A DNA stretch of 13,308 nucleotides from positions 1-13,308 of the forward strand of contig JAEOSZ010000091.1 in NCBI GenBank assembly GCA_016840095.1, given 5' to 3'. Position 1 is the stretch's first letter. Every line of letters begins with the position of its first letter. The stretch is from Candidatus Heimdallarchaeota archaeon (GTDB lineage Archaea > Asgardarchaeota > Heimdallarchaeia > Heimdallarchaeales > Heimdallarchaeaceae). This document shows, piece by piece, positions 1 through 13,308 of the stretch. The position numbers were made by a program, and so were the translations under genes. The notes under the pieces are model-generated. The model made no database searches and had not been told where the DNA came from. It saw only the letters and a program-made list of their open reading frames with translations.

Positions 1-2
1 AT

Positions 3-302
3 CGGAATGTAACAAACTTTGTGATGAGAAGAGGTTTACTCCACAGGATGATTGGTGGAGATAATTTTGGAGCTATTATCATTGAAACAGCAGGACAAGG
101 ACCCCAACAAGCTCATCCTGAGCAAAGAATTGTAGGAATCATGAATGTTGCAGAATATGCAGAAAAGATTCGAACCATACTAGCTAAGATGAAAGGACAA
201 GCTGGAGTTACTGCTGATACAGAAACAGCTTCTTCTTTAGATGAAGAGGAAATCCTGACAAAGATACTAGAGACTTTGAAACAGATAGAAAACAAACTCT
301 AG
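3..302 (+). CDS. C-terminal part of a bacterial PH (bPH_2/YdbS-like) domain protein, 5'-truncated by the window edge
   Basis: Frame 3 is open from base 3 (RNVTNFVMRRGLLHRMIGGDNFGAIIIETAG...). The GLLHR..G..FG.IIIETAG pattern resembles bPH_2 domains, followed by a short helical tail. The GTG start at 21 is probably internal. Confidence 0.7.
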   Translation, partial: RNVTNFVMRRGLLHRMIGGDNFGAIIIETAGQGPQQAHPEQRIVGIMNVAEYAEKIRTILAKMKGQAGVTADTETASSLDEEEILTKILETLKQIENKL

Positions 303-327
303 TTCTTTCTTTATTTTCCACTTTTCC
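303..327 (+). terminator. T-rich putative archaeal terminator between convergent genes
   Basis: ttctttctttattttccacttttcc lies immediately after the TAG stop. Confidence 0.35.
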
Positions 328-384
328 TATAGTTTTTCTGGAAAAAAGGATTAGGAATGAAGTGTTGCTTTTCTACTTTATTTC

Positions 385-1332
385 TTAATAATCCAAAACT
401 TCTGGAATAACTTCTTTTCCCATTACTTCCAGTGGTTTTATCTCATCAACATTTGGCATATTGAAAACAAGATGTTCGCATCCTGCATTACTCAATTTTC
501 TGCATATATTTAGAACATCAGATGATGACATCGATTCAGGAGATAATTCAATATAAGTTGTAGCAGTTTTTTCGACCTCTTCATAAGGTCTTCCAATATC
601 TTCACAATGACCTCTAAGAACCGCATACTTGTGCTCTAATCGTTCCTTCCAGAAATCCCAATCCTTGTCATCATCATATAATCTTCCAGCATTTTTGAAA
701 GTAGTACCAAGAACTATATTACAGGCATCAGCATATTTAGCTACAAATCGAAGAGTCTTCTTTTCTCCTGAACCTCCAATTAGAATAGGTGGATGAGGTT
801 TAGTAACAGGAGGAGGACTATTAATTGGTTCTTGAAGAGTAAAATGCTTTCCTTCAAAAGGTTCAGTTTTTCCTGCAAACATGTGTTTAAAGATTTTAAG
901 AGATTCTTCTAACATCTCAAATCGAATTTTTAGAGAAGGGTATTCATATCCGTAACCTACAGCTTCTCGTTCAAACCAACCAGCACCGATACCGAAATAG
1001 GCTCTACCTTTAGAAAGAACATCTAGGTTTGTAACCATCTTTACCAGAAGAGCTGGATTTCTAAAGAAATTACATGTTACTTGAGTCCCTAGCTTGATTT
1101 TCTTTGTTTTGCCAGCCAGATAAGAAATAGTAGTGTAAGCTTCAAGCATTTCAGCTTCTTCAGGTCCATGAACTATACCAAATTGATCACCTAGCTGAAA
1201 AACATGGTCCATCACCCAGATACTATAAAAATCGTTTTCATCTGCTACTCGAGCAATTTCTGTTAATTTATCAGAGATGTTTTCTGGACTACCTGGCCAG
1301 TGAAATTTTCCAATATGCAATCCTATTTTCAT
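385..1332 (-). CDS. Luciferase-like monooxygenase (LLM) class, probable F420-dependent oxidoreductase (Rv1855c-like)
   Basis: Motifs SIWVMDHVFQ, EAYTTISYLAG, RNPALLVKMVTNLDVLSKGR, GIGAGWFERE and PHPPILIGGSGEKKTLRFVAKYADACN. Confidence 0.9.
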   Translation of the reverse strand: MKIGLHIGKFHWPGSPENISDKLTEIARVADENDFYSIWVMDHVFQLGDQFGIVHGPEEAEMLEAYTTISYLAGKTKKIKLGTQVTCNFFRNPALLVKMVTNLDVLSKGRAYFGIGAGWFEREAVGYGYEYPSLKIRFEMLEESLKIFKHMFAGKTEPFEGKHFTLQEPINSPPPVTKPHPPILIGGSGEKKTLRFVAKYADACNIVLGTTFKNAGRLYDDDKDWDFWKERLEHKYAVLRGHCEDIGRPYEEVEKTATTYIELSPESMSSSDVLNICRKLSNAGCEHLVFNMPNVDEIKPLEVMGKEVIPEVLDY

Positions 1333-1354
1333 AAATTAAACAGATTAAATTGAG

Positions 1355-1384
1355 TATAAATAAATTCCCCACATTAGTTTTAAA
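1355..1384. promoter_or_regulatory. Divergent TATA boxes for the LLM (-) and DinB (+) genes
   Basis: TTTATA on the minus strand at 1360-1355 is 23-28 nt upstream of ATG 1332. TTTAAA at 1379-1384 is 25-30 nt upstream of ATG 1409. Confidence 0.45.
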
Positions 1385-1393
1385 ATATAGTAA

Positions 1394-1897
1394 ATGTTTA
1401 AGTCAAATATGAAAAAATCTCTTTTCATAGATATCTGTAGAGAAAATTATCTAGCTTTAATGAAGATGATAGAACAAACAATCAAACTTTGTCCTGATCA
1501 ACTGTGGGCAGATAAGTCTCTCCAACCTCAATTTTGGCAAGAAATCTATCATACTCTTTACTATCTTGATTTCTATTTTGGAACCAACTGGAAGAAACAA
1601 CCTGAACGATTTGAAGTTAAAGAGAATTTAGGAGAAGTACCAAAAACTATTCTTTCGAAGGAAGAGTTGTTAAGCTATTTAGATGAAATGAGAGAGAAAT
1701 GTGTAAATGTTTTGGATAACCTTACAAATGAACAAATACAAGGTAAGAACAGCTATTTCTGGACTGGTCCTACTTTAAGTCACAAACTAGTCTACAATAT
1801 TCGTCATTCTCAACATCATGTTGGAAAAATCAACAATATACTAAGTGCAAATGGGATAGAAGCTGCTAAATGGGTTATAGATCCGAAGAAGAAGTAA
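1394..1897 (+). CDS. DinB/YfiT-like superfamily protein (true start possibly ATG 1409)
   Basis: CPDQLW, FWQEIYHTLYYLDFY and YNIRHSQHHVGKI give the three-His metal site of the DinB four-helix bundle. Confidence 0.85.
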   Translation: MFKSNMKKSLFIDICRENYLALMKMIEQTIKLCPDQLWADKSLQPQFWQEIYHTLYYLDFYFGTNWKKQPERFEVKENLGEVPKTILSKEELLSYLDEMREKCVNVLDNLTNEQIQGKNSYFWTGPTLSHKLVYNIRHSQHHVGKINNILSANGIEAAKWVIDPKKK

Positions 1898-1911
1898 AGC
1901 AAATGATAAAT

Positions 1912-2652
1912 TCATCTAAATCTTCTTTTCACTAGTCTCGTAATTGCTAAGAGAGTCATTATGGCTATAATAGAAATAATTATAGAACTACTTCTTGTTT
2001 TTGTAGTTTCTACTACTTCTATAATTACACAATCTGAAGCAGTATTATTAGATTCATCAGTTAAGGATAGACAGTAAGTAAATGTTCCTAGTTCAGTAGT
2101 ATCTATTAAAAATTGAAATCTCACTTCACCTACCCAAGCACCCGAATCAACAACTATGCCATTTAGTTTCAATTCAAAACTTGCTGGATATGGATCTATT
2201 GCAGACCATTCAATATACTGCTCAGTAGAGTTTAATTCAACTATTTTATCTTCTGGTGATGTATAGATAGTTGGCGCAGCAAAATCTCTAACATGAACCA
2301 AAACAGTGTCATTGTTTGATTCAAAGAAATCATCAAAGACATGAACAACAAACTCATAGTCTCCAACCTTCAAATGACTAATACTGTGTGTTATTGGATA
2401 ATTTGATATCCAGTAACCTAACTCCACTAAAACATCGTCTTGGTAGACTTCATAAAAGAATGGATTTTCTGAATAAGCTGTCCAAGAGATTTTCTTGCCT
2501 GTGTCCCCTTCATTGAAAGTGATGTCATCTGGACTAGAAATTGTAGGGAGTACCGCATAAACAGAAGTGGTGAGACTAAATGAGATTAGAATCAAAGAGA
2601 CAAACAAAAGACAAAAACTGAGGACTTTAATGTTTCTTTGATTATTGTTCAT
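1912..2652 (-). CDS. Secreted, membrane-anchored surface protein with two tandem Ig-like beta-sandwich repeats
   Basis: The start is moved from TTG 2724 to ATG 2652 (MNNNQRNIK), which is followed by a signal peptide and has TTTAAA at 2678-2683. Repeats are PTISSPDD..ISWTA..NP..YEVYQDDVLVELGYW and PTIYTSPED..IEWSA..YP..FELKLNGIVVDSGAW. The C-terminus is a TM helix plus KRRFR. Confidence 0.8.
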   Translation of the reverse strand: MNNNQRNIKVLSFCLLFVSLILISFSLTTSVYAVLPTISSPDDITFNEGDTGKKISWTAYSENPFFYEVYQDDVLVELGYWISNYPITHSISHLKVGDYEFVVHVFDDFFESNNDTVLVHVRDFAAPTIYTSPEDKIVELNSTEQYIEWSAIDPYPASFELKLNGIVVDSGAWVGEVRFQFLIDTTELGTFTYCLSLTDESNNTASDCVIIEVVETTKTRSSSIIISIIAIMTLLAITRLVKRRFR

Positions 2653-2771
2653 AGATACTAAACTTATATTTACCTCATTTAAATAATATTGCTCTAGAAC
2701 AAAACCAGATACTGATAAACCCAAAATTGATTAAACACAAAAAATAAATAAAATACTGTTTATCTTAAACT

Positions 2772-3329
2772 GTGTCCTCAGAAACTGTTCAAAGAAAGGA
2801 TGTTCCATGGTGGTTGAGCATCTATTATTTATTCGCAGGTCTAATTTACATAATGATCTCAATGGTGATATTTGGTCTTCTAAACTCCAATTTGCAAGTG
2901 TCATTGGATCTTCTCAAGATTATTTTACTACTACTTGGAATATCTCGACTTTTATACGGTATTTTCTCCAAAGATCCAAGTAAATTGATTAGAATCTTGA
3001 AGACTTTGGTAGGAATAGGAATTATTGTACTAAGTAGTATAGATTTCTTTATCAGAGAAACTAATTTTCCAACACAAATTACTCTACTAGCTATTGGGAT
3101 TCTTATAATTGGTGTTTTGAGAATAACTGTTGGTTTATTAGATAAAAGTGAAGCAAATTGGTTCAGAATTATTATGGTTTCTATCGGTTCTATAACATTA
3201 ACAATAAGTATCTTGTTCCTAATCTTCACAGGCTGGGAAACAAGCATCTATGTTATCTTGTTAGCTGTAAGTTTTATTCTTCAAGGATTGACTAAAATCA
3301 ATTATGCTTTAGAAGTATTTGAGAAGTAG
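2772..3329 (+). CDS. Six-TM membrane protein, DUF308/HdeD-like
   Basis: Six hydrophobic segments with repeated LLLGISRL / LIIGVLRI / ILQGLTKI helix ends; GTG start. Confidence 0.65.
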   Translation: MSSETVQRKDVPWWLSIYYLFAGLIYIMISMVIFGLLNSNLQVSLDLLKIILLLLGISRLLYGIFSKDPSKLIRILKTLVGIGIIVLSSIDFFIRETNFPTQITLLAIGILIIGVLRITVGLLDKSEANWFRIIMVSIGSITLTISILFLIFTGWETSIYVILLAVSFILQGLTKINYALEVFEK

Positions 3330-3370
3330 GAGATTCTTTATTATGAAAGAAGAAAGAGAAGCCAACACAA

Positions 3371-3376
3371 TATAAG
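3371..3376 (+). promoter_or_regulatory. Putative TATA box of the MBL gene (leaderless-type spacing)
   Basis: TATAAG lies 22-27 nt upstream of ATG 3398. Confidence 0.4.
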
Positions 3377-3397
3377 TGTCTGAAGAACTAAATTACT

Positions 3398-4276
3398 ATG
3401 CAAGTACAGAAAATAGGTTCTCGAGGGATCTTGTTTAATCTTCCAAGCCAACCCTTTTCAGTTCAGATTTATTGTATTAACTCTCCAAATTATCTTTTTA
3501 TTATTGATACAGGTGTAGTTTTAGAAAATCAAATGGAGGATGTTAAACAATATCTTGTAGAAAATGAGTTTTTTACAAAACCTGTTGCTATCATCAATAC
3601 ACATCAACATCATGACCATATGGGAGGGAATCATCTAATAGATGCGGAAACCATTATAGGTCATTCTATGTTTCCAGAAAGATTGAAACAGACTATAGAA
3701 CTGCTTGTAAATTATGAAGCATATAAACTAGAAATTGAGAATTTTGCTCCCCCTACTCAAACCTTTGATGAGAAATTAGTCTTTGATGAAGAAGGCGTAG
3801 AACTATTTTATTCTCCCGGACACACAGAAGACTCAATTTCCATTTATGATAAAATCGATAAGATTCTCATTGTTGGAGATACCTTAGTTCATCCTCTACC
3901 CTCAATCAATTGGTATGATTTAGATCGATTTATTGAAACCTTAGAGACCTATAAGAAGATTGATTTTGAAAAACTGATACTAGGACATGAAAAAGTTCTA
4001 GAAGGAACTGAATTTATTGATGAAACAATAGAATACATCAAGAAGTTCAAAGCTCTTGAAGTTGACTTTACAGGTTTTACAGATGTTCATGCACTGATGT
4101 ACAGATGGGGTCTAGTGAATCTTGCTAAGAATCTTAAGAGAGCAGGAAAAGAGGAAGAAGCAAAGCGCTATCTCTTGAAAGCTAAAACTGACATTGAAAA
4201 TCCAATAATTAAACCAAAAGATGAAAGAGAGTATAATGGATTGATTGAGGAAATAGAGAAAGGACTGAAAGATTAG
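3398..4276 (+). CDS. Metallo-beta-lactamase (MBL) fold hydrolase with a C-terminal helical extension
   Basis: IIDTG, NTHQHHDHMGGN (HxHxDH), SPGHTEDS, VGDT and ILGHE. Confidence 0.92.
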   Translation: MQVQKIGSRGILFNLPSQPFSVQIYCINSPNYLFIIDTGVVLENQMEDVKQYLVENEFFTKPVAIINTHQHHDHMGGNHLIDAETIIGHSMFPERLKQTIELLVNYEAYKLEIENFAPPTQTFDEKLVFDEEGVELFYSPGHTEDSISIYDKIDKILIVGDTLVHPLPSINWYDLDRFIETLETYKKIDFEKLILGHEKVLEGTEFIDETIEYIKKFKALEVDFTGFTDVHALMYRWGLVNLAKNLKRAGKEEEAKRYLLKAKTDIENPIIKPKDEREYNGLIEEIEKGLKD

Positions 4277-4311
4277 TTCTTCCTCTCTTTTCAAAAAAAT
4301 GACAGAAGAAT

Positions 4312-4326
4312 CCCTTTAAAAAAGGG
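4312..4326 (+). promoter_or_regulatory. TATA box embedded in an inverted repeat
   Basis: CCCTTT-AAA-AAAGGG; the TTTAAA at 4315-4320 is 22-27 nt upstream of TTG 4342. Confidence 0.45.
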
Positions 4327-4341
4327 TTAAAATAAAGCTAA

Positions 4342-5271
4342 TTGAGTAAAATGCCAAGAAGACCTGATGCTGAATTAGTTAAGACATCTAAATTTCATGA
4401 AATAGAATTCCTTATCATGCGCAAGAAAACACAGAGTGAGTTGCATTATAAGGCTCAAATAGATCTTACTAAAACTAAAGAATTTCTAGAGAAGTACAAC
4501 AAGGATAAGGACGAAGGAGATAAGTTAACTCTTTTCCAAATTTATCTAACAGCTGCAGTTAGAGCAATAACCTTACGCCCAAGAATTAACAGATTCGTCT
4601 CAGGACGAAGATTGTGGCAAAGAAATAGGATTATCATTTCTTTTGTAGTTAAGAAAGATACAGAAGAAGGTGGAGAAGAGATCAATGCCATGATAGAGTT
4701 TGATCCTTTTGATACTCTGGAAACTGCTCAAAAAATTATTCATGCAGAAATTCATGAAGCAAGACATGGGGTAAATCCAAACGAAGAAGATGTCAACTTA
4801 GCTAAGAAAATGCCTCGATGGATGTTGAGATCGTTCTTTTGGTATTTGAGATGGTCAGACAGTCATAATTTTCCTCTTCATTCATTTACCAAAGATATAC
4901 CAATGTGGTCATCAATTTTCCTTGCTCATCTAGGTTCAATCGATATACCTGCAATTTATCATCATCTCTTTGAATTCGGAACAACTGGGATTCTGATTAC
5001 TTTTGGAAAAATGCATAAAGCTCAAGTTGTAGATCAAGAAACTGGTAAAGTCGATGTTCGTGAAGTAATGGAAATAAAAGTCTCAATAGATGATCGTATT
5101 GCTTCGGGAAGTTATACAGGTCCAACAATCAAATTAATGCAAGATTTAATAGAAAATCCTGAACCTCTGCTAAATCCCCCGGATTTGACTGATGAACAGC
5201 TAGATAAATTGATGCTGAAGAAATACAAGAAGGATAGAAAAGCCAGAGAAAAGATGAGAAAGAAGAAATAG
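4342..5271 (+). CDS. Stand-alone 2-oxoacid dehydrogenase E2-like acyltransferase catalytic domain (CAT-like fold), with no lipoyl or E3-binding domain
   Basis: IDLTKT, AAVRAITLRPRINRFV, SIFLAHLGSI and C-terminal VSIDDRIASG..LIENPE align with the E2 core (canonical DHRxxDG..lEnP). Confidence 0.8.
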   Translation: MSKMPRRPDAELVKTSKFHEIEFLIMRKKTQSELHYKAQIDLTKTKEFLEKYNKDKDEGDKLTLFQIYLTAAVRAITLRPRINRFVSGRRLWQRNRIIISFVVKKDTEEGGEEINAMIEFDPFDTLETAQKIIHAEIHEARHGVNPNEEDVNLAKKMPRWMLRSFFWYLRWSDSHNFPLHSFTKDIPMWSSIFLAHLGSIDIPAIYHHLFEFGTTGILITFGKMHKAQVVDQETGKVDVREVMEIKVSIDDRIASGSYTGPTIKLMQDLIENPEPLLNPPDLTDEQLDKLMLKKYKKDRKAREKMRKKK

Positions 5272-5355
5272 TTGTGTATGGGAAATTGGTTATTGCTTAA
5301 GATTTAACCATCAATTTTTTATATTTGGAATGATAGTTCTTTAAGATTAATTAAT

Positions 5356-5712
5356 TTGGTAAGGCATTTGTCCAAACACAGAATTTCCATTAGAAAATTT
5401 CTTTCAGAAAGTAATCCATTTACATTTGCTCTAATTTCTATTTTGATTATCTGCATAGTTTTAATCATCTTGGCTGCAAATTATCGAATAGGAGTCAGCA
5501 CAAGAATAGACACAATTGGCTTAGTTTTGAAGTTGAGCGCAACAGTTATCATGCTTGTTTCTGATTTTGTTTTTATTCCTTTGTGGAATAAATATAGAAG
5601 AAGTCACAATTTAGAAACAAAAGAAGTTTCTATTATTGTGTTATCTATTTTAGCAGTGATAATTTTTGCAATTACAAGTTTAGTTCATTACCTTATAATG
5701 ATCTTAGTGTGA
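5356..5712 (+). CDS. Hypothetical 3-TM membrane protein
   Basis: Three hydrophobic helices. It is homologous to the C-terminal domain of the next gene, which supports coding status. The TTG start is uncertain. Confidence 0.75.
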   Translation: MVRHLSKHRISIRKFLSESNPFTFALISILIICIVLIILAANYRIGVSTRIDTIGLVLKLSATVIMLVSDFVFIPLWNKYRRSHNLETKEVSIIVLSILAVIIFAITSLVHYLIMILV

Positions 5713-5814
5713 AAATACCCTATAGAGTAATTTTGCTGCTTATTTTCATATTTTCAGTAAGACTTTTATGCTTCAACTTTTGCTAGACTAGATTAGATTA
5801 AACTGTGATTGTAA

Positions 5815-6717
5815 ATGTTAAGATTCAATTCTTATAGAACAAAGCAGATCTTTGTATTGATCATATTTCTGTTAACAATCTTCAATGGAGTAAAATCGTC
5901 TCAAGCAGAAGGGAATTTAACTGAAACACTGGTGTTGACAGATTCACAATATTATGATCTCAATCAGTTCACTAATAATAAAGATCAAATGTTCAAGTTG
6001 AAAATTAAACTAAAAGATTCTTATGAAGATTATCAGTTAATAAGAATCTATTTTGCGATTTTCGAATCATCTCTTGAAACTGCTTGGATAAATTATCTTG
6101 ATAATTACTTCCCTGAGCCTAGTTTAGAAAAGCCACAATCTGTCTGGGAATCTAATGCAAGATTAGGATTAGAATGGGAGATTGAACTACAACAAGGTGA
6201 TTACATCGTAGGATTTGCAATGAGTGGTTTTACCGAAGTGTTTCTATCATTTACATTGAAATCAGCAGTATGGACAAAGTACTCTTGGGTTTGGATAGTT
6301 ACAGGCATTCTATCATTTAGTTTGATAACAGTAGTTGTATTATTGTCTTTTCAAAAAACCAGAATGCAATTCATGCAATTGTTGAATAAGATTAGAGTCT
6401 CTGTTTTCGAAAGAAAATATAATCCGTATAGTATTGCTCTATTTATTGTTTTGATTGGTTGTATCATAACAATAAGCTTCTCTGCAAAATACAATTTGGG
6501 TGTATCATCAACTGATAACATCAGCCTAATGTTGAAGTTAGTACCAACATTAATTATGTCTGTAGCTGATGTGATTCTCATACCACTAGGCAATAATTAT
6601 AGGAAGAAGCACAATCTAGATTCAGTTATTTTTGTCAAAATTCTTGCTATTTTCGCACTTTTGGTTCTTGCCTTTTTTACAGTTGCCCATTGGTTCATAG
6701 TAGGTATGATGTCGTAA
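5815..6717 (+). CDS. Hypothetical membrane protein: signal peptide, extracellular beta-rich domain, TM helix and C-terminal 3-TM domain
   Basis: N-terminal hydrophobic signal (..SSQAE), about 120 aa soluble region, TM WVWIVTGILSFSLITVVVLL, then a domain paralogous to 5356..5712. Confidence 0.8.
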   Translation: MLRFNSYRTKQIFVLIIFLLTIFNGVKSSQAEGNLTETLVLTDSQYYDLNQFTNNKDQMFKLKIKLKDSYEDYQLIRIYFAIFESSLETAWINYLDNYFPEPSLEKPQSVWESNARLGLEWEIELQQGDYIVGFAMSGFTEVFLSFTLKSAVWTKYSWVWIVTGILSFSLITVVVLLSFQKTRMQFMQLLNKIRVSVFERKYNPYSIALFIVLIGCIITISFSAKYNLGVSSTDNISLMLKLVPTLIMSVADVILIPLGNNYRKKHNLDSVIFVKILAIFALLVLAFFTVAHWFIVGMMS

Positions 6718-6863
6718 ATACTATGTATAATTCATATAAAAAATATTAATAAAATAGAGATCCACATAAATGCTCTAGTTCTACCAGAATATGCTTTCTT
6801 AAAGCCTTCAAATAGATTTAAATACTTTCAATCATATAATTAACCGTTTCGGAGAGTGATTAA

Positions 6864-7949
6864 TTGAACAAGAATAATAACAAAAATAAACGAAACTATA
6901 TTTTGAGCTTTTTTATAGTATTTTTTTTGGTATTACTGAGTATTAGTTTTTCAGCTCAACTAGCTCAATCTGCTGTATCTATTGAATTAAACCATGTTGC
7001 CACCTATGACACTCCAGGTAGTGCGAAAGGAGTGTTTGTTGTGGATGATAAGGCATATATTGCTGATCAACATTCTGATTTACAAATAGTTGATGTTTCT
7101 GATAAATCAAATCCAACATTCCTTGGTTCAGGATATTTTACAAGTTCTACAAGGTTTGGAATAGAAGTTCTAGGTGATTATTGTTTCATCTCAGGGTGGA
7201 ATAACAAACTGCCTATATTTGATGTAAGTGAGCCAGCCACTCCAGTTCTAGTAGAAGATGATTATTATCTGCCAATTAGTGATGCTTGTGATTTTGTAAT
7301 CAGAAATGATATCATCTATATAGCTGATTGGATACACTGCTTCTATATCTTTGACATCAGTAATCCTTCTTCACCAACAGCTTTAGGATCTTATGGTACA
7401 TTTCAAGCAAATGATATCGATATTAGAGGAAATTATGCTTATCTAGCCACATCTGCGGGAATAGTAATACTGGATATTTCTGATGTAAATAGTCCAAGTT
7501 TTGTTGATATTTATAATACTGCAAGTAGAGTGGATGGAGTAACGATTGTTGATGATTATCTATATGTTGCTGGAGGGTCACAAGGACTAATGGTTTTTAA
7601 CATTACAGATTCAACAAATCCAGAATTATTAGATTCAATTGATACACCAGGATTTGCAGTTAGAGTTGAGGTAAGGAGTAATCATGCTTTTGTTTGCGAT
7701 GGAACAGGAGGTTTAAGGATAATTGATGTGAATGATCCGTTTAATTTAACCTTATCAGATGCACTAATTGAATATAATCAATCTTCTAACATCTTCTTTC
7801 TAGATGATTATGCATATTTAACTAACAGTGACTATGGTTTAGAGATATTCAAAGTTAAAGAATCTACTAAAAAATCCAATTATTTCGCAATTAGTGGCAT
7901 TTTTGTCATTTTAATGGCAGTAATAATTAAACGAAAAAGAACTAGATAA
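6864..7949 (+). CDS. LVIVD-repeat 7-bladed beta-propeller surface protein
   Basis: Signal peptide, then seven ~42-aa repeats (e.g. AYIADQHSDLQIVDVSDKSNP, AYLATSAGIVILDISDVNSP, AFVCDGTGGLRIIDVNDP). The C-terminus is a TM helix plus KRKRTR. Confidence 0.9.
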   Translation: MNKNNNKNKRNYILSFFIVFFLVLLSISFSAQLAQSAVSIELNHVATYDTPGSAKGVFVVDDKAYIADQHSDLQIVDVSDKSNPTFLGSGYFTSSTRFGIEVLGDYCFISGWNNKLPIFDVSEPATPVLVEDDYYLPISDACDFVIRNDIIYIADWIHCFYIFDISNPSSPTALGSYGTFQANDIDIRGNYAYLATSAGIVILDISDVNSPSFVDIYNTASRVDGVTIVDDYLYVAGGSQGLMVFNITDSTNPELLDSIDTPGFAVRVEVRSNHAFVCDGTGGLRIIDVNDPFNLTLSDALIEYNQSSNIFFLDDYAYLTNSDYGLEIFKVKESTKKSNYFAISGIFVILMAVIIKRKRTR

Positions 7950-7963
7950 GAAGATTGAACTAA

Positions 7964-8332
7964 ATGATATTACAACAGGAAAAGAATTCAGAGAATGAAA
8001 ATTCTGATATAAAGAAGAGAAAAGAAGAAAGAGAAGCACGTAAGTATGTGGACATTGCTTTGCCTTTACTTGCAATAACTAATACAGTATTAGCAATAGT
8101 AGCACACGTCACAATGTGGAGTAATTGGGGCACTTATACTCTTGTATTACTTATTGTTTCTACAGCAATGCTCCCAATAGTACTATCTCTAATATTTTAC
8201 TTGAGTAACAAAGATAGAACAGCTTTGGTGCATAACACAGGGATACTTATTTCAAGCTTCCTAGTAGTTGTGATAATCGCTTCTGTACTTATTCAATGGA
8301 TACTTGCTGTTGTTTATCTACGAGTGATCTAA
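7964..8332 (+). CDS. Hypothetical 3-TM membrane protein
   Basis: Charged N-terminus followed by three hydrophobic helices; starts 14 nt after the LVIVD gene stop. Confidence 0.7.
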   Translation: MILQQEKNSENENSDIKKRKEEREARKYVDIALPLLAITNTVLAIVAHVTMWSNWGTYTLVLLIVSTAMLPIVLSLIFYLSNKDRTALVHNTGILISSFLVVVIIASVLIQWILAVVYLRVI

Positions 8333-8368
8333 TAATCATGTTACAAAACTACATCATAGGAATCTCAC

Positions 8369-8431
8369 AATGTAACAAATTTAGAGAAGTGGAAATTCTG
8401 TCTTTGCCTACATTCTCTAAAGTTGTTCATT
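8369..8431. repeat. Long imperfect inverted repeat (hairpin 1)
   Basis: aatgtaacaaatttagagaa (8369-8388) pairs with ttctctaaagttgttcatt (8413-8431) with one bulge and one mismatch. The inner gtggaaa/tttgcctac segment also pairs. Confidence 0.75.
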
Positions 8432-8487
8432 AATTCCGGAATACTGTTTTTCATTGAACTAGTGCTTTAAGATTATTTGAGATATGA

Positions 8488-8546
8488 TAATTGGAACCTT
8501 AGTATGTTCATGAGATTTCTCGCTTGGATTATACTAAGCACAATTA
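8488..8546 (+). promoter_or_regulatory. Long stem-loop in the probable 5' leader of the NTase-uvrA operon (hairpin 2)
   Basis: Stems are taattg/caatta, cttagtat/atactaag (perfect 8 bp), gttca/tggat and tgag/ctcg around an attt loop. TTTAAG at 8466-8471 lies upstream and SD-like tgagg at 8556-8560 lies downstream. Confidence 0.6.
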
Positions 8547-8567
8547 CTAAAAAACTGAGGAAAAGAA

Positions 8568-9503
8568 ATGAATCAGCAATTACAAGTAAAAAAAAGGTTT
8601 GATGATGCTCTTGATGCATTCATCGATTTTATCAAACAGGATAAAAGTATCCAAGTAGCTCTTCTTTTTGGTAGTTTGATTGAAGGAAATGTATGGGAAA
8701 AATCTGATGTTGATATAATACTAATAAGTACTGACGAAAGGAACCCCTACAAATTTTACTGGTTAGATCAAGACGAACTTAACTTTCAAGTTTCTATCTA
8801 TTCTAGAAATAGATTCAAAAGAATGTATGAACAAAATTTGTCCGGTTCATGGTTTCAACACATGATTAGTACAAGCAAGATCTTGTTCTCGAATGATGAA
8901 ACAATAAGTGAATATGTGCTCCAAGCTCAATCACCTGGAAAAAGAGATGTTGCATTACAGATTTTGCAAGTCGTTTCCATGGTCATAGGGGATCTGGAAA
9001 AGGCAGAGAAATTTCTACTAAGAAGAAAAGATGTTGCTCAGAGTTATCTATTTATCTCAAGATTATTAGATAATCTTGCCCAAATAGAAGTTTTACTTAA
9101 TGGAGAGATACCAGGAAGAGAAGTATTAGAACGAGCTCTAGAATTCAAACCTAGATTATTCTCCAAGATTTTTACTAGAGTCATAGAAGAGCAAACAACT
9201 CAAGACAAAATGGTGGAAATCATTGAACTAATTCGAGAATATTTGGTTGAAAGAACAGAAATAATTTTCAAACCTATAATTGATTATTTCAAAGAAGAAC
9301 AAGAAGTTAGAACATTAACAGACTTGACAATTCATCTAAACAAAATGATAACCTCAAGTTGGTGGGAGATCGCTTCTTTATCATATTGTCAATGGTTATT
9401 GCACCAGGGGTTTCTGGAAAGATATGTTCAGCCAATTAATCTAACCTCGAAAAGCTACATCCAAACTAATGAGATAGCTTACATTTACAAAGGAGAGGAA
9501 TGA
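8568..9503 (+). CDS. Pol-beta superfamily nucleotidyltransferase with helical substrate-binding domain and probable C-terminal winged helix (YgxA-like architecture)
   Basis: LLFGSLIEGNVWEKSDVDII (hGS..DxD), a helical bundle (GDLEKAEKFL..LAQIEVLLNG) and a C-terminal helix-helix-WLLHQGFLERY-beta hairpin. Confidence 0.85.
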   Translation: MNQQLQVKKRFDDALDAFIDFIKQDKSIQVALLFGSLIEGNVWEKSDVDIILISTDERNPYKFYWLDQDELNFQVSIYSRNRFKRMYEQNLSGSWFQHMISTSKILFSNDETISEYVLQAQSPGKRDVALQILQVVSMVIGDLEKAEKFLLRRKDVAQSYLFISRLLDNLAQIEVLLNGEIPGREVLERALEFKPRLFSKIFTRVIEEQTTQDKMVEIIELIREYLVERTEIIFKPIIDYFKEEQEVRTLTDLTIHLNKMITSSWWEIASLSYCQWLLHQGFLERYVQPINLTSKSYIQTNEIAYIYKGEE

Positions 9504-9504
9504 A

Positions 9505-12402
9505 ATGAAGAAGGATATAGAAATCGTAGGAGCAAGAGAGAATAACCTACAAAATATAGATGTAAAGATACCTAGAGAAAAGTTCACAGTTGTAACTGGA
9601 GTGAGTGGTTCTGGTAAATCAAGTCTTGTGTTTGATACTTTATTTGGAGAAGGACATAGAAGATTCATAGAATCTCTGACAGCTTGGGCGAGAACAAGAT
9701 TGCCTACAATGAAGAAACCTGATGTAAATATGATACTAGGGTTATCTCCTGTTGTTAGTATTCAGCAGAGAAGAGGAGTAGCCAATCCCAGAAGCACTGT
9801 AGCATCTTTGACAGATATAGGGAGCTATCTGCGATTGCTATACTCTATTGGTGGAACAGCCCATTGTCCTTATTGTGAGGATGAGATTCCTATCAAATCC
9901 TCAAATCAGATTGCTGACAAGATACTGAATCTTCCAAAAGATACAGCTGTCGAAATTCGAGCTGTTGTTTTCAAGATATATGATGAAGATTACAGGTATT
10001 TGTTTGATACAGTAAGAAATCAAGGTTATAGAAAAGTTAGAATTGATGGGGAAATAGTTGATACAAGTCAGGATATAGAATTAGACGAGGAGAAAGAATA
10101 CAGAATAGAAGCTATCATAGATAAGTTTGTTATCAATGGGGATTTGTACAAACAGTTAGTAGAATCACTAGAAGCAGCATTTTATGTAGGTCAAAAATTC
10201 ATTAGTGTAGAAATACTTAATCCAGAGAATCTGGAAGGAAAAATAGATGAATTCTATCAGGGATTAACTTGCTCTAAACACCATACAATAACAGGAGAAT
10301 TATTACCATGGTACTTTACTGCTAATGACCCAGAAAGTGCATGTCCTACTTGTATGGGTTTAGGTACATATATGCGTGCAGAAAGACAGCTGTTGATAGA
10401 GGATGAAAATCTAAGTCTGAGAGAAGGTGCTTTGGATAGATCTTTCTTTAACATGGATAATAGAACCTTCAAGAAATTTAACAACCCCACATATATGATG
10501 GCTTATAGTTTATCAGAACACTTTGGTTTTAGCTTAGACACACCCTTTAAAGATTTATCAGAAGAAATCAAGAACATCCTATTCAATGGTACAAAAGGTG
10601 AAAAAGTCGAAATTAAGCAACCTCCAGACCACTTTGTAAAAGAGGATAGGAATCTTGGAAAGAAGCTCCCTTATGCAGGATTAATCAGTAGAGTAAACAG
10701 AATGTATAAGGAATACTGGTCGAAGAATGCCGTTCAAGGATCAGTGGAAAATAGACATAAAACTAGATTGATGGTAGAACAAATTTGTCCTGACTGTGAA
10801 GGAGTTAAATTGAAAGAAAGTAGATTGTTGATAAAAGTAAACAGGAAAAATATCTATGAAACATCAACAATGCCTTTCAATAAGTTGAGTATATTTCTAA
10901 AAGAAATTGTTATACCAGAAGAGAAGGCACATTTAGGTAATCCTGTTCTGAGAGAACTAAAGAAAAGAGTAGATTTGATGTTAGAGATAGGATTATACTA
11001 TCTGGCATTGAATAGAAGATCAGATACACTTTCTGGAGGAGAGATGCAGAGAACAGTATTATCAACACAGATAGGAAGCGAGCTAATGGGGATGATGTAC
11101 ATTCTAGATGAACCCTCTATTGGCTTGCATCAGAAGGATGGAAATAAGCTAATTAGCGTACTTAAGAAACTAAGAGATTTGGGAAATACTGTGATAGTAG
11201 TAGAACATGATACTGAAACTATGGAAGCAGCTGATCACCTGATAGAGTTAGGACCAGGCCCAGGAATCCACGGAGGAAAAATTACTTTCGAAGGAACTGT
11301 AGAAGAAATTAAGAACCATACAAAATCTTTGACTGGGAATTATCTTGCTGGTAAGAAGAAGATAGAAGTTCCAGAGAAAAGAAGAGAAATTAATGGTCAG
11401 TATCTAACTATTTATGGAGCTCAAGAGAACAATTTACAGGATCTAGATGTAAAACTCCCTCTAGGATTGTTTGTTTGCATAACTGGTGTAAGTGGATCCG
11501 GGAAGAGTAGTCTAGTTAGAGAGATATTATACAAAAAGTTACATTATCTATTGAAGGATAAAAGGATAATTCCAGGCAAGCATAAGAAGATGGAAGGTTA
11601 CGAAGTAATAAAGGATATTAGAAATATAGATCAGTCACCTATCGGTCGTTCATCACGATCTAATCCTGCAACTTTTGTAGGTCTGTATGATAAGATAAGA
11701 GAAATCTTCACTGAACAACCAGAATCTAAACACAGAGGATATGAGCTGAAACAGTTCAGTTTTAATAATAATCAAGGAGGAAGATGTCTACATTGCAGAG
11801 GGTGGGGAATAATATTAACAGAATTACAGTTCATGCAGGATGTTGTATCAGTTTGTCCAGAATGTAATGGAGCTAGATTCAACAAAGAAACCCTAGAAAT
11901 TAAATACAAAGGTAAGAACATTGCGGAAGTGCTGGATATGACCGTGGAAGAAGGAATAGAATTCTTCAAAGATAATAGACTAATAAGCCACAAACTCAAG
12001 ACAATGAATGAATTGGGATTGGGGTATCTGAAACTAGGACAGCCATCTACTACCTTGAGTGGAGGGGAAGCCCAAAGGATAAAACTCTCAAGAGAGTTAG
12101 GAAAGATTAAGCGATTGAAGAATAATCTCTATATTCTCGACGAACCCACTACTGGACTTCACCTAGATGATATAAAGAAACTTTTATTCTGCATAAACCG
12201 ATTGGTCGATGAAGGAAACACGGTGCTTGTTATCGAACATAATTTAGAGGTCATTAAGACTGCTGATTATGTCCTAGATTTGGGTCCAGAAGGAGGAGAT
12301 GATGGCGGTTTCATTGTTGCTGAAGGAACTCCAGAAGAAGTTTCTAAAGTTACAGGATCATATACAGGTCAATATCTTAAAGCTGTTTTAAACAGCTCTT
12401 GA
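9505..12402 (+). CDS. uvrA: UvrA-family ABC ATPase (excinuclease ABC subunit A homolog, divergent)
   Basis: Two each of GA(R/Q)ENNL, Walker A GVSGSGKSS, signature LSGGE, Walker B YILDEP and H-loop VEHD/IEHN. Zinc modules are CPYC..CSKH, CPTC..CPDC and CLHC..CPEC. DQSPIGRSSRSNPAT is present. Confidence 0.95.
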   Translation: MKKDIEIVGARENNLQNIDVKIPREKFTVVTGVSGSGKSSLVFDTLFGEGHRRFIESLTAWARTRLPTMKKPDVNMILGLSPVVSIQQRRGVANPRSTVASLTDIGSYLRLLYSIGGTAHCPYCEDEIPIKSSNQIADKILNLPKDTAVEIRAVVFKIYDEDYRYLFDTVRNQGYRKVRIDGEIVDTSQDIELDEEKEYRIEAIIDKFVINGDLYKQLVESLEAAFYVGQKFISVEILNPENLEGKIDEFYQGLTCSKHHTITGELLPWYFTANDPESACPTCMGLGTYMRAERQLLIEDENLSLREGALDRSFFNMDNRTFKKFNNPTYMMAYSLSEHFGFSLDTPFKDLSEEIKNILFNGTKGEKVEIKQPPDHFVKEDRNLGKKLPYAGLISRVNRMYKEYWSKNAVQGSVENRHKTRLMVEQICPDCEGVKLKESRLLIKVNRKNIYETSTMPFNKLSIFLKEIVIPEEKAHLGNPVLRELKKRVDLMLEIGLYYLALNRRSDTLSGGEMQRTVLSTQIGSELMGMMYILDEPSIGLHQKDGNKLISVLKKLRDLGNTVIVVEHDTETMEAADHLIELGPGPGIHGGKITFEGTVEEIKNHTKSLTGNYLAGKKKIEVPEKRREINGQYLTIYGAQENNLQDLDVKLPLGLFVCITGVSGSGKSSLVREILYKKLHYLLKDKRIIPGKHKKMEGYEVIKDIRNIDQSPIGRSSRSNPATFVGLYDKIREIFTEQPESKHRGYELKQFSFNNNQGGRCLHCRGWGIILTELQFMQDVVSVCPECNGARFNKETLEIKYKGKNIAEVLDMTVEEGIEFFKDNRLISHKLKTMNELGLGYLKLGQPSTTLSGGEAQRIKLSRELGKIKRLKNNLYILDEPTTGLHLDDIKKLLFCINRLVDEGNTVLVIEHNLEVIKTADYVLDLGPEGGDDGGFIVAEGTPEEVSKVTGSYTGQYLKAVLNSS

Positions 12403-12421
12403 TTTTTTTCTTTTTCTATTT
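12403..12421 (+). terminator. T-rich putative terminator after uvrA
   Basis: A run of T/C (tttttttcttttt...) directly follows the TGA stop. Confidence 0.5.
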
Positions 12422-12517
12422 AAAACATAAAGATAAAAGTGTCCCTAAGATTGTATAGAATTGGAAATTAAATAATTTGTAAAGGCTATTTCAAAGAAAT
12501 TTCATATGTGATGTAAG

Positions 12518-12949
12518 ATGAAAGCTTCGAATGACACAGAAATAAAGATTGAGATTAAGAAAATTCTCCATGATGCTTTTGGGTGGGCTTTAACCAAGGA
12601 TAGAGCACTTTTTGAAAGCATATTTGCAGGAGATGATGATTTTTTTAGTTACTTCCCTGATTCCAAGAGTACTGCAATAGGTTGGAAACAATTTGAAAAA
12701 TTCTTGAACGGTTGGATGGACCCACGAAATATAGCTATAGGATATGAGATAAGAGATCTAAGAATTGTACTTTCTCAGAGTGGGGATGTAGCGTGGTTTT
12801 CTGCGATAGTAGACGATGAAGGAGAGTTCGATGGAAAACCATGGGGAGCTAAAGATATTAGATGGACTGGAGTTTTGGAGAAACGAGAAGGAAGCTGGAG
12901 AATCTGTCAACAGCACTTATCTGAAGCCAACGATTTAAAATCAACATAG
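12518..12949 (+). CDS. SnoaL-like / NTF2-fold protein
   Basis: IGWKQF, IRDLRIVLSQSGDVAWFS and RWTGVLEKREGSWRICQQHLS are typical of SnoaL_3-type domains. Confidence 0.88.
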   Translation: MKASNDTEIKIEIKKILHDAFGWALTKDRALFESIFAGDDDFFSYFPDSKSTAIGWKQFEKFLNGWMDPRNIAIGYEIRDLRIVLSQSGDVAWFSAIVDDEGEFDGKPWGAKDIRWTGVLEKREGSWRICQQHLSEANDLKST

Positions 12950-12972
12950 AAATATGAAAAGAAAGAAAAACA

Positions 12973-13086
12973 ATGAAATCTTGTGAATCTTACCACACAA
13001 AAAAGAACTTTTGTGAATTTTGCGGTTCAAAGTTAGTTAAAGATGCTGTAAAATGTCAAGAATGTTTTGCACCTGTGAGAGATTAA
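12973..13086 (+). CDS. 37-aa zinc-ribbon microprotein (not in the ORF track)
   Basis: Hand translation gives MKSCESYHTKKNFCEFCGSKLVKDAVKCQECFAPVRD*, with CxxCG-x9-CxxC spacing typical of zinc_ribbon_2 domains. Confidence 0.6.
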   Translation: MKSCESYHTKKNFCEFCGSKLVKDAVKCQECFAPVRD

Positions 13087-13147
13087 AAATCTAAACAAAA
13101 CTTCTTCAATTTTGTCTATAAAGAAATAAACGAGATATAAAGGTAAT

Positions 13148-13306
13148 TTATGCAGATTTTTCTTTCCAATCTTTGTATTCTTTTCCAATTTGGAATGTCT
13201 TTCCAGCAATTTTTCCCATTTCCCGATAGGTTCTATCATGATATAGTGCTAATGGGTTTATTTTTTCCAGGTCTGCCTTATCATTTAAGACACAATCTTC
13301 ATCAAC
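13148..13306 (-). CDS. C-terminal end of a flavin reductase / flavoredoxin family protein (5' part outside the window)
   Basis: The frame is open from the window edge: VDEDCVLNDKADLEKINPLALYHDRTYREMGKIAGKTFQIGKEYKDWKEKSA*. This resembles the flavoredoxin C-terminus (D..K..P......Y...G...G.aF.iGk). Confidence 0.7.
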   Translation of the reverse strand, partial: VDEDCVLNDKADLEKINPLALYHDRTYREMGKIAGKTFQIGKEYKDWKEKSA

Positions 13307-13308
13307 GA

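Follow-up and report, generated by a model that had tools for sequence, protein, structure and literature searches.

A conserved nucleotidyltransferase–UvrA gene pair of bacteria and archaea is probably an accessory DNA-protection system

Introduction

UvrA is among the best-studied sensors of DNA damage, and its known paralogues are either partners of UvrB and UvrC or truncated proteins of drug resistance. A contig of a Candidatus Heimdallarchaeota archaeon (GenBank assembly GCA_016840095.1, contig JAEOSZ010000091.1), analysed over positions 1 to 13,308 of the forward strand and referred to below as the window, carries a full-length uvrA paralogue directly behind a gene for a nucleotidyltransferase (NTase), and the locus raises the question of why these two genes stand together and what their products do. 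The NTase gene (8568–9503, + strand; 311 amino acids), called as an open reading frame (ORF) and by its match to PF18765, ends in a TGA codon at 9501–9503 that is separated by a single base, A9504, from the ATG of uvrA at 9505 (9505–12402, + strand; 965 amino acids, likewise an ORF call). A GGAGAGG sequence resembling a Shine–Dalgarno element lies within the 3′ end of the NTase gene (9492–9498, + strand), 6 nt upstream of this ATG, and may couple translation of uvrA to that of the NTase gene. These positions agree with those in an initial annotation made from the sequence alone, which had gone on to cast the NTase as the dedicated partner of the UvrA.

We show here that the two genes make up a dedicated accessory unit, probably an undescribed system of DNA protection: a search of the full-text literature gave no description of an NTase–UvrA pair, the UvrA classification of Marszalkowska, including its class IIb, lying outside this comparison.

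Conservation of the gene pair

Within the source genome and related genomes of the same genus, UvrA is encoded directly downstream and on the same strand at all eight loci with an NTase homologue (31–100 % identity). When one genome of each species was scanned by pattern, 188 loci were obtained; among the 80 kept for a neighbourhood count UvrA lies downstream on the same strand in 75, immediately after the NTase in 73 and about 1.4–1.6 kb downstream, with another gene between, in two. NTase and UvrA matches are a median of 37 nt apart (67 loci with a long UvrA match). The pair spans more than ten bacterial and archaeal phyla, being found in Asgard archaea, Bathyarchaeia, Bacillota (many Paenibacillus species, Clostridia), Chloroflexota, Armatimonadota, Abditibacteriota, Gemmatimonadota, Latescibacterota, Acidobacteriota and Planctomycetota. 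Three of the five loci that have no downstream UvrA offer less than 1.4 kb of downstream flank; the other two, both from Chthonomonadales, have sufficient flank and the NTase stands alone.

The NTase is patchily distributed in the Asgard phylum (38 of 400 genomes, 8 of 85 genera), and UvrA adjoins it in every one of the 29 Asgard loci fetched. Four of these have the reversed order, uvrA followed by a gene for a fused double NTase of about 630–700 amino acids, so that the linkage survives a reversal of gene order. Altogether the two genes are adjacent in 112 of 117 homologous loci, in two domains of life and within flanks that are otherwise unrelated, a recurrence that places the coupling far beyond chance. 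When the ORFs of 81 loci were clustered all against all, NTase and UvrA were the only genes shared and no conserved third gene emerged. The identities of the NTases and UvrAs to the window pair also co-vary (Spearman rho 0.74, n = 67), and with adjacency throughout bacteria and archaea, persistence through inversion and this co-divergence, the dedicated partnership that had been proposed from one locus is upheld.

Two unusual forms of the locus may be mentioned. At an Abditibacteriaceae locus (L058) a gene for an AAA_21 (AbiEii-like) ATPase (5928–7049, + strand) separates the NTase gene from that for UvrA. One protein of 313 amino acids (P0084) consists of about 250 NTase residues that pass into roughly the final 50 residues of a UvrA (the VIEHHL..DLGPEGG tail), and looks like a pair collapsed by internal deletion, or else a chimeric assembly.

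A separate clade of full-length UvrAs

The window UvrA is full-length. It scores 1119.2 bits against TIGR00630 (cut-off 729.8) and, at the borderline, 1147.8 bits against PRK00349 (cut-off 1147), and it aligns end to end with the solved UvrA 9gxk (984 bits). Both the UvrB-interaction domain (PF17760, 81.3 bits, residues 132–237) and the insertion, or DNA-binding, domain (PF17755, 61.8 bits, residues 295–408) are recognized. The ATPase motifs are found in duplicate, with Walker A (GVSGSGKS) at 32 and 661, LSGGE at 509 and 851 and ILDEP at 533 and 877. The predicted Zn modules comprise five CxxC motifs and, as the second pair of Zn module 1, a CSKHH at 256, which agrees with the consensus of the clade, CpeHH; in canonical UvrAs this pair is CxxC.

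A FastTree phylogeny of 98 UvrAs, 71 of them NTase-linked, places all 71 on one side of a single branch (support 100, stem 0.46), with the canonical UvrAs of bacteria and of Asgard archaea, each half of the fused double UvrAs described below and class II copies on the other. The same split was recovered by IQ-TREE with 49 rows (Shimodaira–Hasegawa-like approximate likelihood-ratio support 100), and no unlinked UvrA fell inside the NTase-linked clade among 46 genomes, which were chosen via the NTase or by kinship. The NTase-linked UvrAs are thus a clade of their own, apart from both the housekeeping class I proteins and class II (DrrC, Ecm16, UvrA2), and the impression given by the window protein, that it fits neither class well, proves to hold for the clade as a whole, which keeps the UvrB-binding domain that class II lacks.

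That domain had also been described as altered, and here too the comparison agrees. Among substitutions that are specific to the clade, taken as those at positions conserved to at least 85 % in both groups compared, RKGE becomes YGE(D) at 159–162 of the UvrB-binding domain, with nearby basic residues lost; the window protein reads YDED. Since these residues are replaced, the surface offered to a partner is probably altered. The remaining changes are CxxC to CxxHH in Zn module 1 (256–260), G278S, D581E, K726G and T870R. The domain is likely to be in use, because its conservation within the clade equals that in canonical UvrAs (column means of 0.60 and 0.56 respectively).

The Asgard members nest among Bacillota sequences in the FastTree phylogeny, which indicates that the pair was transferred into archaea, with Bacillota-like bacteria as the source of the Asgard copies. 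At 35 %, the mol% G+C of the window pair is near the 33 % found elsewhere in the window, and the acquisition is accordingly not a recent one. The pair spreads by horizontal transfer.

The nucleotidyltransferase

The NTase matches the Pfam polymerase-β-type family PF18765 with 39 bits and, weakly, a YgxA-like substrate-binding domain. An AlphaFold2 model of high confidence (predicted local distance difference test 91.8, predicted template modelling score 0.83) divides it into a polymerase-β core (residues 1–120), a HEPN-like helical domain (125–233) and a winged helix (229–311). The best structural match, 3C18 (Z 20.8), spans residues 10–309 with 281 of 290 residues aligned and includes all three domains, and it is also the only significant sequence match of the family profile in the PDB (E = 1.8e-6). 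ANT(4′), or kanamycin nucleotidyltransferase, is matched with Z 15.9 over residues 4–255 (236–238 residues aligned, root-mean-square deviation 4.3), and further matches are to ANT(4′)-IIb (Z 13.2), LinB (Z 12.5) and HalB (Z 10). Matches to sequence families go no further than the generic PF18765 and PF01909, and identity to ANT(4′) is 11–14 %. The family is widespread in spite of its small size (at E ≤ 1e-30, 1.84 billion clusters contain 251 representatives), and G35-S36, D47 and D49 are nearly invariant across it. By its predicted fold and motifs the protein is an ANT(4′)-like enzyme with an apparently intact GS...DxD catalytic site.

Fused double NTases of about 610–700 amino acids (L183, L186, L187 and L188; P0086–P0093) are encoded downstream of uvrA. 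Their first half keeps the catalytic residues and the second is degenerate (SFID, SDIN), a pattern to be expected of an obligate dimer whose active site is under selection; a dimeric state is thereby implied for the NTase.

The presence of a winged helix had been taken to mean that the NTase probably binds DNA. The fold is confirmed: residues 229–311 match the winged helices of Fur, PerR and PadR-type proteins with Z 8–9, though such scores may reflect just a common arrangement. The domain is, however, acidic (mean net charge −3.2; −2.0 in the recognition helix), which makes DNA binding doubtful, and contact with a protein is the more likely role.

Other repair genes in the carrier genomes

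The source genome, assembled from a metagenome, measures 3.44 Mb and is 89 % complete with 7.8 % contamination; the window is its contig C88, and the closest homologues of its NTase are labelled Asgard, Heimdallarchaeota or Kariarchaeaceae. It was correctly observed at the outset that neither uvrB nor uvrC lies in the window, but this does not extend to the genome, where the two stand side by side on contig C14. Nor is the window copy the only uvrA of the genome: a 1963-amino-acid open frame on contig C39 (8484–14165, − strand) encodes two complete UvrAs in tandem. Such a fused double UvrA (about 1920–1963 amino acids) is found in nearly all of the 24 genomes sampled from the genus (e.g. L001/L003, L142–L156, L111–L115), and since it is nearly genus-wide we take it to be the resident housekeeping form and not contamination. 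Elsewhere in the order, genera possess one canonical UvrA each (1265–1405 bits). Two bacterial genomes from the Gemmatimonadota/Latescibacterota group (G043, G044) encode comparable fusions, and the pairing of the two halves within each group in the tree suggests that the duplications arose independently.

The source genome also has a second NTase–UvrA pair, on contig C37 (L159), whose NTase and UvrA are 47 % and 60 % identical to those of the window. The genes for an ArsR-GyrI regulator (3696–4559), the NTase (2732–3685) and the UvrA (3–2735, cut by the contig end) are all on the − strand, the regulator gene being co-directional and upstream in what is a three-gene operon. Two pairs are likewise present in one Clostridium-like genome.

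The five bacterial and five further Asgard genomes inspected each have a higher-scoring canonical UvrA (1327–1491 bits) without an NTase, while their NTase-linked copies score 1067–1165 bits. All five of the Asgard genomes also carry UvrB, and hence no pair-bearing genome without uvrB was met among the five checked for it. The pair is thus an extra copy beside the normal UvrA, UvrB and UvrC, and a canonical UvrA accompanies it in every genome checked.

We note in addition that several Asgard genomes (G004:C97, G006:C167, G071, G076, G079, G324 and G333) have frames of about 1590–1660 amino acids with two truncated UvrA-like units, which match the UvrA model only from about residue 250–400 and are thus class II-like, lacking the UvrB-binding region. 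With these included there are up to four kinds of UvrA in Asgard archaea.

Regulators, neighbours and fusions

Regulators with ArsR-GyrI, MerR-GyrI or stand-alone GyrI architecture are encoded directly upstream of the pair in six of 81 loci, to which the C37 pair of the source genome is to be added; the count was made with a small hidden Markov model and may miss divergent GyrI-like genes. A co-directional ArsR-GyrI gene occupies this place on C37 and at Heimdall and Bathyarchaeia loci, and in two Bacillota loci it is taken by MerR-GyrI in one and stand-alone GyrI in the other. Among 99 immediate neighbours the most frequent are Cass2/GyrI-like and GNAT proteins (six each), followed by ArsR (four), AraC-type helix–turn–helix (HTH) and glyoxalase/bleomycin-resistance proteins (three each), and MerR and MFS (two each). 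A divergent WYL-HTH regulator adjoins the pair in one locus, and AAC(3) is upstream in another.

The NTase is also found with an N-terminal fusion to an extracytoplasmic function (ECF) sigma factor (regions 2 and 4) or an AraC-type HTH (P0102, at 6001–7542 of L206; P0107, at L202–L204; P0126, at L205), and every one of these fusions precedes a UvrA of the NTase-linked type. At L206 genes for an APH-family kinase and a PNKP/ligase-like protein lie upstream of the fusion. A link to ligand-sensing or stress regulators is therefore recurrent, those of the GyrI-like kind being found in a minority of loci.

Possible functions of the pair

The account that we tentatively prefer, without holding it to be established, is that the module protects DNA against small molecules that bind or damage it. 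A xenobiotic or genotoxic signal would switch it on; the UvrA paralogue, with ATP, would locate sites where a small molecule, bound or attached, distorts the DNA, and would dislodge or expose the compound; and the NTase would nucleotidylate a hydroxyl of the compound, or of the lesion, and so neutralize it. The proposal draws on the precedent of Ecm16 and DrrC (PMC9328131) together with that of the antibiotic nucleotidyltransferases. In its favour, besides the partnership, the separate clade and the extra copy, are a fold matching the small-molecule O-nucleotidyltransferases ANT(4′) and LinB, the retained catalytic residues, and neighbours that recur, namely GyrI-like regulators and the glyoxalase/bleomycin-resistance and MFS families.

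Several observations weigh against this proposal. Unlike the known drug-resistance UvrAs, which have no UvrB-binding domain, the clade keeps and conserves it, which points to a protein, UvrB for example, as its partner. Only about a tenth of the loci have a GyrI-like regulator at their flank, and the window pair and the Paenibacillus pairs are without one. The GNAT, MFS and glyoxalase families are in any case common among soil bacteria. To judge from its fusions to DNA-binding domains the NTase could be a sensor and not a detoxifying enzyme, and the pair is not within an antibiotic biosynthesis cluster in any of the loci examined. Searches of plasmids and phages with the NTase by tblastn gave no match.

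A more specific form of the proposal, which we regard as doubtful, would have a distinct full-length class of UvrA use its remodelled UvrB-binding domain to recruit the NTase, either as a substitute for UvrB or alongside it, such that nucleotidylation and not excision resolves DNA-bound toxins or lesions in both bacteria and archaea.

The best surviving rival makes the paralogue a specialized entry into nucleotide excision repair (NER), handing to UvrB and UvrC those lesions that the housekeeping UvrA handles poorly, with the NTase either controlling the process (e.g. by AMPylating UvrA) or working on the lesion or DNA end. The intact ATPase motifs and apparently intact Zn motifs would suit such a role, as would a UvrB-interaction domain (PF17760, 81 bits) as well conserved as in canonical UvrAs, but the change from RKGE to YGE(D) and the loss of basic residues mean that the surface facing the partner is no longer the same. 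That uvrB is in every pair-bearing genome checked is as expected, yet uninformative, UvrB being in these genomes anyway. The WYL-HTH regulator at one locus is suggestive, as PafBC-type WYL regulators drive a DNA-damage response. Control by AMPylation would find a parallel in the weak relationship of the NTase core to the protein-AMPylating antitoxin MntA, although that score is far under the cut-off (28 against 60) and the nearest solved relatives of the NTase modify small molecules, not proteins or DNA. On balance we think a branch of NER somewhat unlikely.

Less probable again, and in our view plainly unlikely, is that the NTase serves mainly as a ligand sensor or transcriptional co-regulator of the paralogue, leaving UvrA as the sole effector in the manner of DrrC and Ecm16. 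This would give meaning to the ECF sigma and AraC-type fusions, all of which precede UvrA and in which the NTase occupies a position matching that of the GyrI-like effector domain in Rob-type regulators, although neighbouring genes of an operon can fuse without regulatory consequence. Every NTase member includes the winged helix, and ahead of the window pair there is a conserved motif that resembles an operator (see below), but the winged helix is acidic, recognition helix included, and the near invariance of GS and DxD even in the fused forms would not be expected of a pure sensor.

We consider it very unlikely that the pair is a defence against phages or other foreign DNA, in which UvrA would sense modified or distorted invader DNA and the NTase would make a signal or modify the invader. 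A patchy distribution shaped by horizontal transfer is what one would look for in such a system, but no phage or plasmid copies were found by tblastn. The fold of the NTase resembles that of Hailong HalB (Z 10), whereas its score against the HalB NCBIfam model is 16.5 with a cut-off of 190, and it matches just two candidate PADLOC families, weakly (≤24.5 bits). The C-terminal half of the UvrA matches MADS mad3 (284 bits), yet its PADLOC matches come only through generic UvrA/ABC homology. An AbiEii-like AAA_21 ATPase gene stands between the two genes at one locus, but flanking genes are otherwise non-defence genes and there is no nuclease- or pore-type effector. A Pfam scan of the window ORFs, which were not scanned against PADLOC, showed no defence-system partner. 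Finally, an adjacency due to chance or pure synteny, for which the five of 80 loci without a downstream UvrA might speak (two of them, from Chthonomonadales, with enough flank), is effectively refuted by its presence in 112 of 117 loci of two domains with unrelated flanks, its retention after gene-order inversion and a UvrA clade that is exclusive to the pair.

A third kind of UvrA, full-length, in its own clade, with an ANT(4′)-like partner and exchanged between bacteria and Asgard archaea, would couple lesion sensing of the UvrA type to a different downstream chemistry. If genotoxin resistance is its purpose, the NTase would represent a new family of drug-modifying enzymes and the GyrI-type regulators would point to inducers; if instead the paralogue feeds UvrB, a new sub-pathway of NER would follow. 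The module is small, and cultured carriers exist in many Paenibacillus species and in Oceanirhabdus.

Signals and other genes of the window

Upstream of the window pair a conserved block (8433–8476, + strand) comprises a candidate operator and a TATA-like box. It contains the palindrome ATTCCGGAAT at 8433–8442 and a second palindrome, TTCATTGAA, followed by TTTAAG at 8466–8471, which resembles an archaeal TATA box. In five orthologous loci the GGAATAC repeats and ATTCCGGAAT block, together with the A/T box, are the only well-conserved stretch of the upstream intergenic region, the remainder having diverged. The exact operator motif occurs once in the window, and since at least one match was also seen in 51 of 200 shuffled sequences this is insignificant by itself; conservation suggests that the ATTCCGGAAT block may be the operator of some regulator.

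The initial annotation had bracketed the pair with a structured leader and a T-rich terminator. The leader structure is weak and not conserved: it folds with a z-score of −2.16, six of 200 shuffled sequences fold equally well, and the stretch is deleted in the orthologous locus L031; an Rfam scan of the window matched no family. At the other end a hairpin, AGCTGTTTTAAACAGCT (12381–12397, + strand), overlaps the end of uvrA and is followed by runs of seven and five Ts (12403–12415). Oligo-T is the usual archaeal terminator, and on account of this and of its position after uvrA the element is a probable terminator, although such patterns are no more numerous in the window than in shuffled sequence.

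Downstream of uvrA is a SnoaL-like gene (PF13474; 12518–12949, + strand) that is 83 % conserved in the orthologous locus L030 and not conserved in the other loci, and it could be a lineage-specific addition or mere synteny. Other genes of the window encode a luciferase-like monooxygenase (385–1332, − strand), a member of the DinB_2 superfamily (1394–1897, + strand), a metallo-β-lactamase-fold protein (3398–4276, + strand) and an LVIVD-repeat β-propeller (6864–7949, + strand), none of which is kept beside the pair elsewhere.

Comparison with known systems

With class I UvrAs (TIGR00630/PRK00349; 9gxk, 2r6f/3uwx) the paralogue shares two ABC ATPase modules, the UvrB-binding and insertion domains and the C-terminal Zn finger. 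It differs from them in its separate clade on a long stem, its lower scores, its clade-specific substitutions, its status as an extra copy and its NTase partner. The window UvrA is accordingly not the housekeeping orthologue, for it lies in that separate clade and the genome has another UvrA.

Like ANT(4′)/KNTase and LinB, the NTase combines a polymerase-β core and HEPN-like helical domain with a GS...DxD motif and an implied dimer, although identity is only 11–14 %, no ANT-family Pfam or NCBIfam model is matched, and the C-terminal winged helix and the link to UvrA are additional. All three domains, winged helix included, are shared with 3C18, a YgxA-like protein of Exiguobacterium sibiricum from structural genomics, at 13–14 % identity. 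With MntA, which AMPylates its partner protein HepT, and HalB, which makes oligodeoxyadenylate, the likeness is confined to the minimal NTase core, their activities serving as models for the rival mechanisms. Assignment as an MntA antitoxin fails on score (NF047752, 28.1 against a cut-off of 60) and on context, the neighbour being UvrA and not a HEPN toxin, and assignment as Hailong HalB fails similarly (NF051895, 16.5 against 190; no adjoining HalA-like gene). The UvrA is not MADS mad3 either, the PADLOC match of 284 bits covering only the C-terminal ABC half (642–958).

We know of no NTase partner described for class II UvrAs, and the class II copies of one genome (G041; 761–849 amino acids) fall outside the NTase-linked clade. 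In class II neither the UvrB-binding domain nor the first Zn finger is present (PMC9328131), whereas the paralogue keeps this domain and the first Zn region, and it therefore does not belong among them. It does resemble the class IIa proteins (DrrC, Ecm16 and Deinococcus radiodurans UvrA2, PDB 2vf7) in being accessory and acting beside a housekeeping copy. Ecm16, which confers echinomycin resistance without other NER proteins through ATP-dependent recognition of drug-bound DNA (PMC9328131), would thus be the best functional analogy for the paralogue.

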